Part shown: positions 9,950-52,714 of the stretch, in pieces
Position numbering within the stretch: position 1 is the stretch's first letter
Layout of the letters: every line of letters begins with the position of its first letter
Origin: a virus
Length of the DNA stretch: 64,000 nt
IMG/VR virus record: IMGVR_UViG_3300027746_000697
Span: 52,632-116,631 of that record
Reading direction: 5' to 3' (one strand)
Notes under the pieces: model-generated
The model's database searches: none
Seen by the model: only the letters and a program-made list of their open reading frames with translations
Told to the model about the DNA's origin: nothing
Position numbers and translations under genes: made by a program

Positions 9950-10110
9950 GGTTTTCGCTCCTTTTGGATTGTTTGTTCGCGGATTTGCTACTGAAAAATC
10001 GATTCGCTCCCGACTTGTTCCTTCAATAATATTTAGCTTTTAAAGCACCAATTCTCTTGCTATACTAAATACAAGGCACTATAATAGTGTTTTAATAGGA
10101 AAATAAGTAA

Positions 10111-10314
10111 ATGGCAACAGGTAAAGTAAAATGGTTTAATGAAACCAAAGGTTTTGGGTTTATTACTCCAGACAACGGCGGTGAGGATTTATTTGCTCAC
10201 TACTCAGCGATTCAGACATCAGGATTCAAAGTTCTGCAAGAGAATCAATCAGTAAGTTTTGACGTAGTACAGGGTCAAAAAGGCTTGCAAGCCGCAAATA
10301 TTCAACCGCAGTAA
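10111..10314 (+). CDS. cspA: Cold shock protein
   Basis: [25 protein letters not shown] motifs. Confidence 0.97.
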
Positions 10315-10336: not shown

Positions 10337-10402
10337 ATGGCCCAGAAGAAAAGAACACCAATGGAACGTGCGGCTCGCCGTGCTACCAAAAAGAAACGTT
10401 GA
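10337..10402 (+). CDS. 21-aa basic peptide MAQKKRTPMERAARRATKKKR
   Basis: GGAG SD; fills the gap between csp and tmRNA. Confidence 0.5.
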   Translation: MAQKKRTPMERAARRATKKKR

Positions 10403-10411
10403 TTTAAAAAT

Positions 10412-10805
10412 TGTTGTAATCCCTTCAAAACGAAGGCATGTTGGACGAGGGTTCGATTCCCTCCATCTCCACCAAAAAGGTTTTTAATGGATCAGTGGGA
10501 CGAGTACTTTCCTCCTTTGAATTTATGGAACTATAGCCTACATTGGCAATGGTTCAATGATCCAATAGAAGAAGAAAATCTTTCTGATGGGGATGACCAG
10601 GTTTCGACAGCGTGAGATAGTAGAGACGGCAACACGATAGGCGATGGACGTAATCCAAGCAAAAACCGTAAATGCAAACGCAAATACATTTGAGTATTTC
10701 AAAGTTCCAGCTTCAGTAGCTTTTTCAGCTAATGATGCAGACTTTGCAATGGTAGCCTAAGAAACTACAACTCCGGGGCTGGTTAGCCTTGTAAACCAAT
10801 AACCA
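10412..10805 (+). ncRNA. ssrA: Circularly permuted two-piece tmRNA
   Basis: T-arm plus CATCTCC-A-CCA ending at 10474 precedes GGGGATG..TTCGAC (10589); G3-U70 pair; tag 10674-10760 ANANTFEYFKVPASVAFSANDADFAMVA*; outer ends approximate. Confidence 0.9.
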
Positions 10806-10832
10806 AAAAAGGCACTTTCGAGTGCCTTTTTT
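10806..10832 (+). terminator. Intrinsic terminator after tmRNA
   Basis: AAAAAGGCACT-TTCG-AGTGCCTTTTTT. Confidence 0.85.
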
Positions 10833-10903: not shown

Positions 10904-11356
10904 ATGAAAAAATTAGCAATCGCATCAATGTTGGCCTTGGCCGCATTTTCAGCAAGTGCTGTAGAAGTTGGCGTTAATGGTAGTTATGATTTTGGCGGTG
11001 CAAATGACCGTCCAGGCGCTGGTATTACCATTGGACAGAAATATAACAAATTTGGAATCACTGCTGGCTTTGATCGTTACACCAAAGGTACTGATCAAAA
11101 CAAGTGGAACCTAATGGGTTCATATGATGTTGCTACTGTGGCTGGTGCTACTGTTGCAGTCAAAGCTGGTGCAATGTATATTGACAACACTGGCAGAGTA
11201 GCAGACGGCTATGCCGCATTGGTTGGTGCTGGCGTAAGCTACCCACTTAGCAAAACTGTTGCCTTAACTGCTGATTATCGTTATCAAGCAGGTCAATCGC
11301 GTGTAAACACATTTGACGGTAGCACTGTTTTATTTGGTGGCAAGTACTCGTTCTAA
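10904..11356 (+). CDS. Outer-membrane beta-barrel protein (OmpA/OmpW-like)
   Basis: Signal peptide, amphipathic strands, C-terminal YSF. Confidence 0.85.
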   Translation: MKKLAIASMLALAAFSASAVEVGVNGSYDFGGANDRPGAGITIGQKYNKFGITAGFDRYTKGTDQNKWNLMGSYDVATVAGATVAVKAGAMYIDNTGRVADGYAALVGAGVSYPLSKTVALTADYRYQAGQSRVNTFDGSTVLFGGKYSF

Positions 11357-11398: not shown

Positions 11399-11502
11399 TT
11401 ATTAAAAAAATCAATAAGCATTATAGAAATAATTATTGCAAAAATCTATTGACCCACAGGTGTAATAGGCTATATACTAGTACAAACACACAAGGAGACA
11501 CT

Positions 11503-11952
11503 ATGTCAATAACATTGAAAAATTTGGAGTCAGCACTTGCTGGCGAGTCTATGGCTCACATCAAGTATCGTTACTTTGCAAAGATCGCTCGCGAAGAAGG
11601 CTTCGAGGATGTTGCAAAACATTTTGAGCACACAGCAGATCAAGAAATTCTACACGCATGGGGCCATTTGGAACTGCTAGTCGGTAAGCCAACAACCCGC
11701 GAGTGCTTGGAGAAAGCTATCGAAGGTGAAACATATGAGTTTACTACAATGTATCCAGAGTTTGAACGAAATGCCCGTGCCAGCCACAATCATCAAGTTG
11801 AACAAGAAATGCAAGGACAAATTGTCGAAAGCAAAGAACACGCAGAAGCATTTAAAGCTGTGTTGGCCAAGGCAGAAAAACGTTTTTCGGCTTTGAAGCG
11901 AGTTGAAGAGCGTCATGCCAATGCTTACAAACAAGTTTTGGAGACACTATAA
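11503..11952 (+). CDS. Rubrerythrin family protein
   Basis: NLESALAGES..Y..FA..A..EG, EILHA, EGETYE, ESKEHA; AGGAG SD. Confidence 0.92.
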   Translation: MSITLKNLESALAGESMAHIKYRYFAKIAREEGFEDVAKHFEHTADQEILHAWGHLELLVGKPTTRECLEKAIEGETYEFTTMYPEFERNARASHNHQVEQEMQGQIVESKEHAEAFKAVLAKAEKRFSALKRVEERHANAYKQVLETL

Positions 11953-12086
11953 TGGAACACGTATGTATTGTATGTGGACATGTCCACGATGAAGAGATAG
12001 AAGGCCAATGGGAAACATTGCCTAACGAATTCGTCTGTCCAGAATGCGGTGTAGGTAAAGAAGACTACATAGAAGTATTATTCTAA
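11952..12086 (+). CDS. Rubredoxin
   Basis: MEHVCIVCGHVHDEE..WETLP..FVCPECGVGKEDY; not in the ORF track. Confidence 0.9.
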   Translation: MEHVCIVCGHVHDEEIEGQWETLPNEFVCPECGVGKEDYIEVLF

Positions 12087-12124
12087 ATAAAATGTGTTAA
12101 AAAGGCCATATTACCAATATGGTC

Positions 12125-12153
12125 TTGACACAAAGACTAAATAACTATATAAT
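12125..12153 (+). promoter_or_regulatory. Consensus sigma70 promoter
   Basis: TTGACA-17 bp-TATAAT. Confidence 0.85.
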
Positions 12154-12218
12154 AAGAACATGCACAAGCAACTGCCTGTGTAAGGTGTTGTAGAAATACA
12201 ACAAAGAAAGATTTCAAA

Positions 12219-12299
12219 AGTGGTTGACTATGATGCTGAAAGGCATTATAATCAACCACTGAGTGGTTGACTATGATGCTGAAAGGCATTATAATCAAC
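12219..12299 (+). repeat. 38-bp direct repeat (two copies), each containing a sigma70 promoter
   Basis: AGTGGTTGACTATGATGCTGAAAGGCATTATAATCAAC at 12219 and 12262; TTGACT-17-TATAAT. Confidence 0.85.
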
Positions 12300-12353
12300 A
12301 CAAGACACTAGCATTCCGCTAGTAAATTTTAAGAGAGTAAACGAGAACACAAA

Positions 12354-12503
12354 ATGCAATCTTGCAATAGACATCAACAATTTAATACGATGCCCAAACA
12401 GGTAGGCGTTATAGCCTCTTATTGGTTGTCGATTAATGCGGGAAGTCTATCATCATTAGATCGCACACCAGAGATTCGCAGGGTCCGGGAGACCGTAGTG
12501 TAA
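12354..12503 (+). CDS. Putative attenuator leader peptide (49 aa, all 20 amino acids)
   Basis: MQSCNRHQQFNTMPKQVGVIASYWLSINAGSLSSLDRTPEIRRVRETVV*; 3' end overlaps the antiterminator strand. Confidence 0.65.
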   Translation: MQSCNRHQQFNTMPKQVGVIASYWLSINAGSLSSLDRTPEIRRVRETVV

Positions 12504-12567
12504 AGTAAAACATACACCGCAAACTTCAAGGACCCTAGGATTAAAAACCCTGGGGTTTTTTGTTTTT
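12480..12567 (+). terminator. Attenuator: intrinsic terminator with competing antiterminator
   Basis: Terminator GGACCCTAGG/CCTGGGGTTT plus U-tract; AGGGTCC (12480-86) is complementary to GGACCCT (12530-36). Confidence 0.75.
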
Positions 12568-12839
12568 AGACGCTGAGATTGCCAAGGCAGTCGTTGAAGC
12601 AAAGTGTGGAGATACCAGTAACGAGGACTGGGCTAGGCACTATAAACATCTAGCAAACGGGCGGCCTGTAGGATGAAGCACTTCTTCTAGTGTGAAAAAT
12701 TACAGCGTATTAAAGCATATTCCAAAACTAGAATGTTTAGGGGATAAGGCCACAAGCCGAGTATGCTTTAATACACACTCTTCACCTCCGCTTTGAACGC
12801 GGTTGACATCATAGAGGGAGAGTGTTACAATTAAAGTAT

Positions 12840-12925
12840 GGAGTAGAAGCATCAATGGTGATGCAGTGGACTGTAAATCCGCCGTCGTAATGGCACGCCT
12901 GGTTCGATCCCAGGATACTCCACCA
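12840..12925 (+). tRNA. tRNA-Tyr(GTA)
   Basis: Cloverleaf, loop CTGTAAA, long variable arm, CCA. Confidence 0.92.
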
Positions 12926-12931
12926 AGTTTA

Positions 12932-13006
12932 GGTCTGTTCGTATAGAGGTTATTACTGTGGATTGTCTATCCACTTACGGGGGTTCGATTCCCCCACAGA
13001 CCGCCA
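12932..13006 (+). tRNA. tRNA-Asp(GTC)
   Basis: Loop TTGTCTA, G73, CCA. Confidence 0.9.
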
Positions 13007-13013
13007 ATTTTAT

Positions 13014-13089
13014 TCCGCAGTAGCTCAGTTGGTAGAGTAGATGACTGTTAATCATTTGGTCCCTGGTTCGAGCCCAGGCTGTGGAGCCA
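13014..13089 (+). tRNA. tRNA-Asn(GTT)
   Basis: Loop CTGTTAA, CCA. Confidence 0.95.
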
Positions 13090-13148
13090 ATAAAGTAATC
13101 AAATATACTAGTTTGTCAATAAATATTGAAATATTTAAGGATTAGTGT

Positions 13149-13895
13149 ATGCTTGATTACGAATGGATGTTTTATTTTTATTTAATAATATGGTTTATAT
13201 CTTGCAGTGTTTATGCAATTTACATTCACAGAGCACATGCTCATGGATCAATTACTGTAAGTTCAAACTTTAGTTATTTTGCTAGAACGTGGTTATGGTA
13301 CATAGGATTTTGGTATCCTGGTGATTCTGTTCGTTCATTTGTAGCCGGACATAGAAAGCATCATGCTACTTCTGATACCGTTGATGACCCGCATAGTCCA
13401 TTGTATTATAGCAAACAAGAACTGTTCTTTACACAAAAACCGAGTCCAACTAGTCCAGCGTATTATTTAACACCTGATGAAATTGAAAAATGGGCATCGG
13501 ATGTGCCTATATACACGGATTGGTTAGAACACCAATTTGCAAAATATTCTAACTATAGATATCCAGTTGGCGGAATTTTAGTGTTAATAATGTTTGGAGT
13601 TTGGGGACCAGTTGTTGGGTGTTTCCTGTTATTTTTTATACAGATACTCCTTCGGTCACATAATTATCTAAGTCATACAATAGGTTATCGAAATAGACCA
13701 GCAAAAGGTGCTGATCGTTCTCGAAATATATTTCCAATAGGACTGTTGTTTTTTGGAGAAGAACTTGCGGCAAACCATCATGATGATACCACTAAAGCAA
13801 AATTTTCAGAAAAATGGTGGGAATTTGATCTTACATGGGGAATTATCGTGATTTTGAAATTTTTTGGTCTAGTTAAATTAAACTCTACCAAATAA
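13149..13895 (+). CDS. Fatty acid desaturase (second paralog)
   Basis: HRAHAH, HRKHH, NHH boxes; WWEFDLTW. Confidence 0.88.
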   Translation: MLDYEWMFYFYLIIWFISCSVYAIYIHRAHAHGSITVSSNFSYFARTWLWYIGFWYPGDSVRSFVAGHRKHHATSDTVDDPHSPLYYSKQELFFTQKPSPTSPAYYLTPDEIEKWASDVPIYTDWLEHQFAKYSNYRYPVGGILVLIMFGVWGPVVGCFLLFFIQILLRSHNYLSHTIGYRNRPAKGADRSRNIFPIGLLFFGEELAANHHDDTTKAKFSEKWWEFDLTWGIIVILKFFGLVKLNSTK

Positions 13896-17078: not shown

Positions 17079-17633
17079 ATGAATCATTTACGTACTAGAT
17101 ATAAAGCTGATTGGTACGATAAAAAGATCGAACAGAATAAGGTAATTCAGGACGATCTTATTAGTATTATTAACAAGTATAAGGAACCTAATTTTCCTTG
17201 GTCAGAAGATATGCTGAGATATCTCGAGAATGAAAACTTACTCGAAATTGCCATACCTACAGTTAACAAAGGTATTAGTGTAGTGTTAGGGGAAGGTATG
17301 GATTTTGATAATCATGGGGATGCTAAACTATCAATCGCAAGATTTCATTCAGGCGGTTCTAGTTACGCATCTGGCATTAAATGTAAGTATAAGGAATTTA
17401 TATTAGCATACGTATATGAACCTATACAAAAGAAATCGTATTATTTTGCCTTTCCAAAAAAGTATAACGAACATACTATTCCGTTTGATAAAAACACAGG
17501 TGCACCAAAGCGTAATAATTATATGTGGGACTACGAATGTTCCACGTTTGAAGAAATGGCAAACTACAATATAGGATTAGGACTAGTTGAACAAATACCT
17601 AAAAATACATTTGACAATTTCTTTTTTGCATAG
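17079..17633 (+). CDS. Hypothetical protein
   Basis: ORF with its own TTGACA-17-TACAAT promoter at about 17019. Confidence 0.7.
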   Translation: MNHLRTRYKADWYDKKIEQNKVIQDDLISIINKYKEPNFPWSEDMLRYLENENLLEIAIPTVNKGISVVLGEGMDFDNHGDAKLSIARFHSGGSSYASGIKCKYKEFILAYVYEPIQKKSYYFAFPKKYNEHTIPFDKNTGAPKRNNYMWDYECSTFEEMANYNIGLGLVEQIPKNTFDNFFFA

Positions 17634-19315: not shown

Positions 19316-19709
19316 ACCCCCGGCTACACTTCTACGTTAAGGAAGTGCGTGATTGCAAATACGATAATTGCACGGTGCATTGGATCTACCGCAAGGCTCT
19401 CTTTAAGGGCGACTTGAGAAATCACAAAGGCAGGGACGTTTCCCGTCTAAATAGAAAAGAACGTGGACAGAGTAACCGCTCAGTCTAGGGCTCATGTGGT
19501 GTGAGTAGCTAGACACTTTATTAAAGCATACTTGAATCCCACATAGTGAACAGATCAGGTTTGGCATCCCGGGCAGTTGAACAATAGTTTGACAACGCCA
19601 AATACGCCATAGTATGTTTTAATAAAGTACATTTAACTGGTCTATAAGATCAGTAGTAAGGACAGGGCACCAGCAGTAGCGAAAGCCATAAATGTGCTTT
19701 ACTCAACAT

Positions 19710-25777: not shown

Positions 25778-25854
25778 GTGGGTGTGCCGCTGAATGGTTA
25801 GGCCCCGGATTGCAAATCCGTATTATGCAGGTTCGAGTCCTGTCACCCACTCCA
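25778..25854 (+). tRNA. tRNA-Cys(GCA)
   Basis: Loop TTGCAAA, U73. Confidence 0.88.
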
Positions 25855-25858
25855 AATT

Positions 25859-25987
25859 AGGATACTAACAGCATATTTTACATTCCAAACTTTGAGTTGT
25901 AGGTTCGAATCCTACCTTCCAATCAAGCCTAAACAGCAGTTGGTTGTAGATCAATGGTAGATCAAAAGTCGTAAAAAATGTATCCTG
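25859..25987 (+). ncRNA. CAGCA-stem RNA copy 4, with circularly permuted tRNA domain (YrlA/Y-RNA-like)
   Basis: AGGATAC/GTATCCT ends; T-arm GTAGG-TTCGAAT-CCTAC precedes D-arm GATC-AATGGTA-GATC; ACTTT/AAAGT stem. Confidence 0.75.
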
Positions 25988-26002
25988 TTTAACCAAAATA
26001 TA

Positions 26003-52100: not shown

Positions 52101-52714
52101 TATACTTTTCCTATAATCATCCATCGTTTGTATAATGGTAATTCTAGTTCGCCAGCCCATAGTACATTGATATCACATTGTTTCTTAAACTCTTCTAAAC
52201 TGCTAGCTGTACGAACATGCTCTGGAATATTATAATTATTACTTTGTAATACAAGTAACGAGTTGTGAGGAACTCCAGACTTCCATAAGTCATATTGATC
52301 TTGCGTAATATGTTCGCAACTGGTATTGATTATGATATTTGCATCGCTTCTTATAGCACACATATCCAAAGTAACTGCTTTAAACTGCCCTTGCATTTCT
52401 TCTTGCTTATTCATCATAGTAGCAATTGGTTCGCATACTGGATCTATATCAATGCTACGAATGTTGGCAACAGGAATTCTACTTTGAAATAACATACTGG
52501 CCAGCACTCCAACCCACCCGCCATGAATATCAATGGAAAACGGCTTGGGCATTGTACAATCAACTTTTGGATGTACTGCTAGTTCCAATGCATCTATCAA
52601 CCATTCTTTGCTTTTAAGTTGTCCACTCCAAAACGCATCCATGGTCCGCATAGGATCAGGGCTTTGTCGGATAGCTTGCATCCAATAGTGTAAGTGTTCT
52701 GTATCAATTTTCAT
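52100..52714 (-). CDS. Class I methyltransferase-like protein
   Basis: GGWVG..SIDID..INTSCEH. Confidence 0.7.
   Translation of the reverse strand: MKIDTEHLHYWMQAIRQSPDPMRTMDAFWSGQLKSKEWLIDALELAVHPKVDCTMPKPFSIDIHGGWVGVLASMLFQSRIPVANIRSIDIDPVCEPIATMMNKQEEMQGQFKAVTLDMCAIRSDANIIINTSCEHITQDQYDLWKSGVPHNSLLVLQSNNYNIPEHVRTASSLEEFKKQCDINVLWAGELELPLYKRWMIIGKV

Follow-up and report, generated by a model that had tools for sequence, protein, structure and literature searches.

Here we describe an element at the head of a phage tRNA array that, judged from its sequence and that of its relatives, is probably a ribosome-mediated transcription attenuator. The element (positions 12354-12567) lies in a 64,000-nucleotide stretch of viral DNA, hereafter the window, which covers positions 52,632 to 116,631 of the IMG/VR virus record IMGVR_UViG_3300027746_000697. 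It consists of a 49-codon leader open reading frame (ORF) containing all 20 amino acids, followed by an antiterminator and an intrinsic terminator that cannot form together, and it stands between consensus promoters and the first tRNA gene. Comparison across relatives indicates that translation of the leader, its amino-acid set and the two exclusive helices are under selection, and that a tRNA array always follows. From this anatomy we infer how ribosome and polymerase are timed, which way the response goes and what triggers it physiologically, and we think it likely that the attenuator couples read-through to the decoding of a frame that holds every amino acid.

Relatives of the element occur in uncultured lake viruses

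The source record is a contig of 116,631 bases that CheckV rates as 32% complete, which corresponds to a genome of roughly 360 kb; contigs of 341-383 kb are found among the relatives in IMG/VR. The neighbouring genes proved poor anchors (among the 80 best rubrerythrin loci and two desaturase loci, only three contigs carry the leader), and relatives were therefore sought through the leader peptide and the terminator motif. Patterns from an alignment of four leader peptides retrieved 76 loci from IMG/VR, and a terminator motif independent of the ORF matched at least 120 stretches, from which 80 loci were taken. Protein collections contributed 44 further clusters, all metagenomic, unnamed or called "hypothetical protein", and without Pfam domains. 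The element is thus viral and found in lake metagenomes, with well over a hundred relatives, all in uncultured viral contigs. No match was obtained in 50,697 GenBank phage records, a set from which near-identical records may be absent, either by blastn with 11900-13100 (which returned only tRNA-Asp/Asn) and 12296-12800 or by tblastn with the peptide.

Composition was counted over 104 distinct leader peptides of 40-51 residues (mean 47). Where the start was ambiguous the most downstream ATG was chosen, which biases against completeness of the amino-acid set. RNAalifold predictions and antiterminator pair counts are based on an alignment of 59 full elements (A2), and energy folds and a tree, built from the element itself, on 102 elements.

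The leader is maintained as a translated frame

The leader carries three features, all on the plus strand:
12354-12503, +, leader ORF of 49 codons with 20 amino acids, 38 distinct codons and a TAA stop
12394-12425, +, conserved hairpin within the ORF, CCA...AGGC/GCCT...TGG
12459-12476, +, DRTPEI-encoding motif, conserved at the amino-acid level and at synonymous sites

A first-pass annotation, made from the letters of the window, had described this frame with its 49 codons, complete amino-acid set and 38 distinct codons, and our analysis recovers it unchanged. An ATG-to-stop frame of 46-51 codons is present in 75 of the 76 loci found by peptide, the 76th running off its contig. In the loci found by terminator, a frame of at least 40 codons that ends less than 60 nt 5' of the terminator is present in 78/78 (among the matches listed, with at least 230 nt upstream), and its length ranges from 40 to 51 codons. 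Shuffled ORF interiors remain open in 6% of trials, and the other two frames hold stops (1-5 or more) in 102/104 and 104/104 leaders. Six distinct indel events separate the leaders in the stretch from the ATG to the antiterminator arm, and the length of each is a multiple of three (3, 3, 3, 3, 6 and 12). No homolog with a frameshift, an interrupting stop or a missing antiterminator, any of which the first-pass annotation would have counted against its proposal, is found among the 104 distinct leaders.

The peptide itself is loosely constrained. The ratio of nonsynonymous to synonymous polymorphism (pN/pS) is 0.69, versus 0.97 and 1.01 in the shifted frames, and variability is nearly equal over the three codon positions (0.56, 0.55 and 0.64 bits). 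Distant members can barely be aligned, yet some of them keep both the length and the full amino-acid set, and the peptide has no Pfam or PHROG match. The preserved frame together with a pN/pS of 0.69 argues that translation is selected as an act, and the sequence of its product much less so.

Two segments inside the frame behave differently. In the hairpin at 12394-12425, one pair occurs as A-U in 53 sequences, U-G in 3, G-U in 2 and C-G in 1, and pairing is kept while amino acids change; the hairpin may serve as a pause hairpin for RNA polymerase. In the DRTPEI stretch, Thr is always ACA and Glu always GAG, even in leaders that are otherwise unalignable, and the stretch may signal a pause or an arrest, or make an RNA contact.

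The leader retains a complete amino-acid inventory

All 20 amino acids are present in 92 of the 104 distinct leaders, 19 in ten and 18 in two. Among segments drawn from 784 long phage ORFs, 1.7% of those with 43 residues, 3.1% of those with 47 and 4.0% of those with 49 are complete, and only one of the other 141 ATG-initiated ORFs of 35-60 codons in the window is complete. We also applied a column shuffle, in which residues are permuted within alignment columns so that conserved positions are kept and links between columns are broken. Under this control 23.1 +/- 3.7 leaders were complete, and never more than 35 in 2000 shuffles.

The rare residues are typically held in single, mobile copies. 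Exactly one Cys is found in 87.5% of leaders, one Trp in 89%, one His in 80% and one Tyr in 82%. Cys occupies 22 alignment columns and is missing from 1.9% of leaders versus 31% under the shuffle; the corresponding values are 1% versus 21% for His and 1% versus 22% for Tyr. On the tree of 102 elements, position changes number at least 43 for Cys, 33 for Tyr and 40 for His, counts that alignment noise inflates, and the three residues are lacking in 2, 1 and 1 tips. The 32-43 codons located entirely 5' of the antiterminator arm already encode all 20 amino acids in 79 of the 104 leaders.

Codon diversity is high as well. Leaders have a mean of 35.9 distinct codons, versus 28.3 +/- 3.1 in 47-codon segments of the phage's own genes, and the 38 distinct codons of the leader in the window were never reached in 50,000 such draws. 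The first-pass annotation had regarded 38 distinct codons out of 49 as only modestly above a random expectation, a judgement that does not survive this comparison with the phage's own genes. Its expectation that relatives would keep a frame of high codon diversity despite poor amino-acid conservation is borne out by the counts given above. Together, these comparisons argue that the amino-acid set of the leader is under selection.

The leader samples codons broadly and is not fitted to its own tRNAs

We then compared the leader with the tRNA set of its phage. Under simple wobble rules, the 49 codons in the window engage 30 of 31 anticodon species, the exception being Lys-CTT, and segments of the phage's genes engage 21.5 +/- 2.7 (maximum 28 in 50,000 draws). 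The same peptide recoded by phage codon usage engages 26.2 +/- 1.5 anticodons (P 0.0098 for the observed 30). For another 18 phages, each represented by at least 24 captured tRNAs, the mean fraction engaged by the leader is 89%, and 16 of the 18 exceed the recoded mean, with single P values of 0.06-0.78 in loci that are related to one another.

A leader tuned to the tRNA set of its own phage was considered and rejected. Across 19 phages with partly captured arrays, the fit to the own array is 0.896 versus 0.898 to those of others, and 11393 of 20000 permutations were as good. We take the leader to be a broad sample of amino acids and of many codon classes; what we claim is high codon diversity, not matching to the phage's own tRNAs.

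The antiterminator and the terminator exclude each other

The end of the leader and the sequence behind it form the switch:
12480-12491, +, antiterminator 5' arm, AGGGTCC and GGAG, within codons 43-46
12498-12517, +, small stop-codon hairpin with the TAA stop in its 5' strand and compensatory G-C to A-U changes
12524-12536, +, antiterminator 3' arm, CTTC and GGACCCT, overlapping the 5' stem of the terminator
12533-12567, +, intrinsic terminator, CCCTAGG (12533-39) pairing with CCTGGGG (12550-56) around a 10-nt loop, then TTTTTTGTTTTT to 12567; -10.2 kcal/mol

The alternative helix had been proposed in the first-pass annotation as AGGGTCC (12480-86) paired with GGACCCT (12530-36), extended by GGAG (12488-91) with CTTC (12524-27) and, over the stop codon, by GTGTA (12498-12502) with TACAC (12513-17). 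All three parts appear in the minimum-energy fold (-29.6 kcal/mol, z -2.76). At the position of the stop-codon hairpin, relatives carry a hairpin of different sequence. The terminator, which is single-copy in the window, is likewise predicted where the annotation had placed it, by RNAalifold on the 59 relatives; a simple scanner did not list it because the 10-nt loop exceeds the scanner's limit of 8.

Covariation, which the annotation had named as a check, is found in both helices. Antiterminator cells of the alignment are paired in 89.4% of cases, versus 21-53% when the partner is slid by 1-3 columns, and none of 500 shuffles reached the observed covariation score. The outermost core pair is A-U in 40 sequences, G-C in 16 and G-U in 3 and is never broken, and its 3' base is at the same time part of the terminator's T.G or C-G pair. 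The 17 "unpaired" cells at two inner pairs reflect a one-base register shift in aligning GGGGTCCC variants. In the terminator stem, one pair is U-G in 43 and C-G in 16 of the 59 sequences, and another changes from G-C to U-A in one relative. The GGGTCC core is present in 104/104 distinct leaders, 60 of which read it in frame 1, 42 in frame 0 and 2 in frame 2, so that the C-terminal residues vary (RVRE, GSxE, GVQE) around an unchanged RNA arm. Both structures use the shared segment GGACCCY and are mutually exclusive, and the conservation of pairing indicates that both are under selection.

Energy folds of the 102 elements favour the antiterminator. Its core is in the minimum-energy fold of the co-transcriptional intermediate in 101/102 (mean -25.9 kcal/mol) and is still present in 95/102 after the 3' half of the terminator is added, and the terminator hairpin alone has a mean of -11.5 kcal/mol. 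Full-length folds contain the antiterminator in 84, the terminator in 14 and neither in 4. This energetic preference suggests that naked leader RNA would read through by default and that termination would require something to hold the 5' arm, a role that a ribosome on the last ten codons would most obviously fill. An upstream helix of the trp kind, which would give termination without translation, was looked for and is not seen, as the same 84 of 102 full-length folds keep the antiterminator.

The geometry is kept among relatives, with 14-27 nt from the arm to the stop codon and 25-35 nt from the stop codon to the 3' arm. A ribosome covers about 12-15 nt on either side. With this conserved spacing, a ribosome near the stop would cover the arm and the stop hairpin and leave the terminator free. 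Searches against Rfam found no family at E of 1 or below in 12300-12800 (as part of a 17-kb search), and with laxer filters on 551 bases and E up to 10 the best hits scored 17-19 bits versus gathering scores of 37-59, which is chance level.

Read-through would lead into a structured RNA and a tRNA array

Downstream of the terminator, the window holds three further features:
12604-12778, +, structured RNA without an Rfam match; 13 of 16 predicted pairs with compensatory changes (27 relatives); no promoter of its own in the window
12803-12831, +, internal promoter, TTGACA-17-TACAAT with a TG extension, 11/12 matches; kept in 3/3 close relatives aligned
12840-12922, +, tRNA-Tyr(GTA), the first gene of the array

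A same-strand tRNA array starts 165-961 nt after the terminator in all 59 loci that have at least 1500 nt downstream. In the window, the array agrees with the earlier estimate of about 34 tRNAs covering 20 amino acids: ARAGORN found 32 genes and Rfam two more, giving 34 genes with 31 anticodons. The two genes missed by ARAGORN are tRNA-Tyr(GTA), with 33.4 bits versus a gathering score of 29, and tRNA-Cys(GCA) at 25778-25851; their anticodon loops were read directly. The first gene of the array is thus tRNA-Tyr at 12840, and not tRNA-Asp at 12932 as had been assumed. A fatty-acid desaturase gene (13149-13895) lies inside the array, and beside tRNA-Cys there is a Y RNA-like match to the Rfam family YrlA (25868-25991) that remains below threshold, at 26.9 bits versus a gathering score of 69.

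The structured RNA at 12604-12778 is the first thing that read-through reaches in the window. It is closed by a GTGTG/CACAC stem and contains an AACG(A/C)G-loop hairpin, the invariant segments GGGCGG and GGATG, and a long AT-rich stem around a variable insert. A 12-nt arm of this long stem (12708-12773) recurs as an inverted pair, 19519/19613 (19519-19624), within the tRNA array.

The T-run is followed in 41 of the 59 loci, at a distance of 10-20 nt, by the start of a conserved small ORF (49-61 residues; for example, L021:5037-5213) that has a good Shine-Dalgarno site; this spacing leaves no room for a promoter there. Its product carries the motif LTxEQxxKLIQDKFERAR. Searches for a Pfam or PHROG family gave sub-threshold hits only (GUN4 with 17.7 bits versus a cut-off of 29.2; PHROGs with E 0.04 or worse). 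The small ORF is missing from the window and a few relatives, and we regard it as lost there.

Promoters and 5' features of the leader

Five features precede the leader ORF:
12125-12153, +, promoter P1, sigma70-type TTGACA-17-TATAAT, 12/12 matches; present in relative L021 too
12224-12252, +, promoter P2, sigma70-type, 11/12 matches; extra copy from a 38-nt tandem duplication
12267-12295, +, promoter P3, 11/12 matches; the family's conserved leader promoter TTGAC-N17-TAYAAT
12307-12323, +, 5' hairpin just after the predicted transcript start; five of six pairs with compensatory changes in 1-28 of 59 sequences (RNAalifold)
12343-12346, +, weak Shine-Dalgarno-like GAGA, 7 nt 5' of the ATG in an A-rich context

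The three sigma70 promoters upstream of the ORF are those that had been annotated at first pass. P2 and P3 arose by an exact 38-nt tandem duplication (12219-12299, spacing 43), which is seen in this contig alone among 60 distinct relatives compared; the 59 aligned relatives are single-copy. A promoter of the P3 type lies 47-66 nt upstream of the ATG in 59 of the 60 distinct relatives, the 60th being clipped by its contig end, and leader promoters score 11-12 of 12 matches. The start context AAAATG is invariant (59/59).

RNA libraries offer a weak hint of expression. Contigs of four lake metatranscriptome runs from four studies cover the leader at 90% identity or more, for example 12270-12398 and 12369-12535 in run X1 and 12308-12488 in X4. 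Two contigs in X4 extend past 12566 into what appears to be the small ORF of a relative, and a 707-base contig in X2 spans 12527 over the terminator to 12776. Being assemblies, these runs report presence in RNA libraries, which may include DNA, and not transcript ends, strand or level. Uncovered stretches (12088-12181 in X1, X2 and X4; 13122-13300 in all four) carry no weight. At 12511-12557, in the most conserved stretch, contigs of many relatives add up to a depth peak that does not measure termination.

Genes upstream of the element

A rubrerythrin and rubredoxin gene pair lies upstream of the element, within 11500-12086; relatives of the rubrerythrin were found in 593 viral stretches. Just upstream of this pair is a gene for a small beta-barrel outer-membrane-like protein (10904-11356), preceded by a phage transfer-messenger RNA (10349-10832) that the permuted, two-piece Rfam model matches with 134 bits and the betaproteobacterial model with 120 bits; ARAGORN calls it permuted too. 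A match to the cspA thermoregulator at 9967-10277 is below threshold, with 41.6 bits versus a gathering score of 78.

A mechanistic model and its alternatives

We propose the following model for the element. Host RNA polymerase would start at the consensus promoter or promoters, and a ribosome would load on the leader. A ribosome that keeps pace would sit on the last ten or so codons (12468-12503) while the polymerase makes 12524-12567, so that the 5' arm (12480-12491) is covered; the freed 3' arm would then form the terminator hairpin and the transcript would end at the T-run. If the ribosome is delayed at an earlier codon, or never loads, the more stable antiterminator would form first, and the polymerase would read on into the structured RNA, in most relatives also the small gene, and the tRNA genes. 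Since all 20 amino acids lie upstream of the arm, a shortage of any class of aminoacyl-tRNA could open the switch, and phage tRNA output would rise when decoding falters.

It is tempting to go one step further and to view the leader as a watch on the whole aminoacyl-tRNA pool that serves counter-defence. Loss of any tRNA class, by host anticodon nucleases, by other tRNA-cleaving defences or by the phage's own breakdown of host tRNAs, would stall the ribosome and switch on the phage tRNA set, the structured RNA and the small protein. We put this forward tentatively, as a possibility that we hold to be rather less likely than not to be correct, and a defence-related purpose of the switch is conjecture.

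Several observations weigh against an attenuator that reads every amino acid. The Shine-Dalgarno site of the leader is weak (GAGA). The all-20 rule is not absolute: besides the 12 of 104 leaders that lack one or two amino acids, 12 of the 44 relatives from protein databases do so, mostly lacking Cys, and when leaders are clustered at 50% identity a complete member is found in only 8 of 15 clusters, the rest having 18-19 amino acids. The loci are kin by descent, so that counts of sequences are not counts of independent events. The leader fits its own phage's tRNA set no better than those of family members, and the AAG codon is absent from the leaders of 13/13 phages with tRNA-Lys(CTT). The nucleotide-level conservation of the DRTPE motif and of the internal hairpins is left unexplained by the attenuator model. 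Finally, with one codon for an amino acid, low sensitivity to mild starvation is expected. This objection from the modelling of classical attenuators (PMC1183508) is answered by the whiB7 (wblC) leader of mycobacteria, in which a single Trp codon suffices for the response to Trp shortage (PMC10274678).

Promoters downstream of the switch bear on the same question. Of 59 loci, 17 have a promoter with at least 10.5 of 12 matches in the interval from terminator to first tRNA, and the other 42 score 9.5 or less. The window has such a strong promoter, and phage-specific, non-sigma70 promoters could exist in any locus. The first-pass annotation had pointed out a bypass promoter at 17611, which we find too, and had overlooked the much nearer one at 12803-12831, which by its sequence partly bypasses the switch for the tRNAs of the window. 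As this promoter would feed the tRNAs directly, read-through alone would supply only the structured RNA of about 175 nt here and would add to the transcription of the tRNAs.

The element might instead report overall translation, or the coupling of translation to transcription, as affected by ribosome supply, host shut-off or ribosome-targeting toxins, in the manner of the antibiotic-responsive leaders bmrB and vmlR and with little weight on individual aminoacyl-tRNAs or on the amino-acid set. The anatomy would be identical, read-through without ribosomes is the default that the folds predict, leaders do not track their own phage's tRNAs, and a long leader with embedded stem-loops is described for bmrB (PMC4191407). 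Such a sensor leaves unexplained why 92 of 104 leaders are complete where 2-4% would be expected, why rare residues are kept as mobile single copies and why codon diversity is 2.5 standard deviations above that of ordinary genes, and we think it unlikely.

An ordinary small-protein gene, with a 49-residue product that acts in its own right, a leaky terminator and an all-20 content that comes about incidentally, would account for the frame being kept everywhere, for the recurrence of the motif W...(I/A)N...S(Y/N)DRTPE even in distant members and for the calling of 44 database clusters as genes. A protein under such selection sits poorly with a pN/pS of 0.69, with equal variability at the three codon positions and with the lack of any Pfam or PHROG match. 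Length and amino-acid completeness persist in some unalignable members, the single Cys, Tyr and His relocate dozens of times without loss, the C-terminal residues shift frame around the fixed GGGTCC, and the frozen synonymous sites of the motif point to a constraint at the RNA level. We therefore regard this explanation as improbable.

We are very doubtful, too, that the terminated transcript of about 265 nt is itself the product, as a trans-acting or dual-function small RNA like rnTrpL, with the switch being secondary. Up to three strong consensus promoters drive a short, structured and terminated RNA (z -3.3), there is nucleotide-level conservation of its internal hairpins and of an 18-nt stretch, and small RNAs derived from attenuators exist, as reported in PMC6614838 and PMC7968998. 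No target is known, and this reading leaves unexplained the frame, the in-frame indels, the amino-acid set and the Shine-Dalgarno site and ATG found 10-20 nt past the T-run in 41 of 59 loci. A small-RNA role can coexist with attenuation. A riboswitch that binds a ligand or a protein, for which the reading frame is irrelevant, would fit the conserved structure and the terminator/antiterminator expression platform, but is highly improbable given a frame in 78/78 relatives versus 6% of shuffles, indels that all keep the frame and no Rfam match at E up to 10.

Comparison with known attenuators

Placed against these alternatives, the ribosome-mediated attenuator belongs to a known kind. By its sequence, the element is a leader-peptide attenuator with three of the structural hallmarks of the class: a short selected ORF close behind a promoter, with the weak Shine-Dalgarno site noted above; an intrinsic terminator before the controlled genes; and an exclusive antiterminator that a ribosome could cover. 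The fourth hallmark, a run or excess of regulatory codons, is absent; a complete set is kept, and no codon is enriched.

In our comparison, the closest known system is the whiB7 uORF attenuator, which appears to be functionally alike. As described in PMC10274678, an upstream ORF (uORF) precedes a choice between antiterminator and terminator, stalling leads to read-through, and whiB7 is activated by shortage of 18 of the 20 amino acids screened. According to the same paper, the uORF of Mycobacterium smegmatis encodes 19 of 20 amino acids; without its single Trp codon, Trp shortage elicits a much weaker response, and without its three His codons the response to His shortage is abolished. The uORF of M. 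tuberculosis is described there as lacking several amino acids, and the uORF as enriched in Ala, so that composition is not kept.

The two systems thus share an upstream ORF and an antiterminator/terminator choice. They differ in that the phage leader conserves the complete set (92/104) and has no excess of Ala (2.4 per 47 codons), and in output: a transcription factor for drug resistance in the cell for whiB7, and a structured RNA, a small gene and tRNA genes for the phage element. There is no sequence relationship, and the default state of the phage element would be read-through. The phage element is not a member of the whiB7/wblC group, which is marked by a WhiB-like factor downstream, occurrence in Actinobacteria and an Ala-rich uORF, whereas this element is viral, has no Ala excess and precedes a structured RNA, a small ORF and tRNAs.

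In the enterobacterial leaders trpL, hisL and the multivalent ilv and thr leaders, the position of the ribosome picks antiterminator or terminator, with fast translation giving termination and slow translation read-through. The phage element resembles them in its promoter-proximal leader ORF and the proposed choice by ribosome position. Unlike them, it has no runs of regulatory codons, each amino acid occurring about one to three times; the leader is long (40-51 codons), and tRNAs are controlled instead of biosynthetic enzymes. It differs from trp, further, in having no upstream helix that competes with the antiterminator, and its untranslated default is predicted to be read-through (84/102).

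A T-box binds one uncharged tRNA directly and needs no translation. The two would share a purpose, in that tRNA status is read out by choosing between terminator and antiterminator and governs genes for the translation machinery, whereas the phage element has a conserved translated frame and no T-box or other Rfam match.

The bmrB-bmrCD system of Bacillus subtilis has a longish leader ORF, alternative stem-loops and an intrinsic terminator, and it requires translation of the leader (PMC4191407). As proposed for the phage element, it reports general trouble in translation; in contrast to the phage element, its terminator falls within the coding sequence, it responds to ribosome-targeting drugs and controls an ABC transporter, and no claim on amino-acid content is attached. 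Searches of the full-text literature turned up no report of an attenuator or leader ORF preceding phage tRNA genes, and none of a leader maintained with the complete set of amino acids.

Implications for phage-borne tRNA genes

There has been essentially no prior knowledge of how phage-borne tRNA genes are regulated. Phage tRNAs have been tied to escape from tRNA-cleaving host defences, as reported in PMC10264068, PMC11555353 and PMC11464382. If the more tentative view of the leader as a watch on the aminoacyl-tRNA pool is true, the element would form a self-adjusting counter-defence circuit, and no attenuator known before it would govern tRNA genes through a reading of all 20 amino acids. The same transcript also carries a strongly covarying, unclassified structured RNA and a conserved small protein. 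The E. coli-type consensus promoters make the element easily testable, and it could possibly serve as a reporter of tRNA depletion.

The leader would also give a natural example of a frame selected for its amino-acid inventory, and not for its sequence, a new constraint to seek in small ORFs. If the model holds, a promoter, about 47 codons and two competing hairpins would suffice for a compact and portable sensor that reports the decodability of every amino acid and feeds back on the supply of tRNAs.

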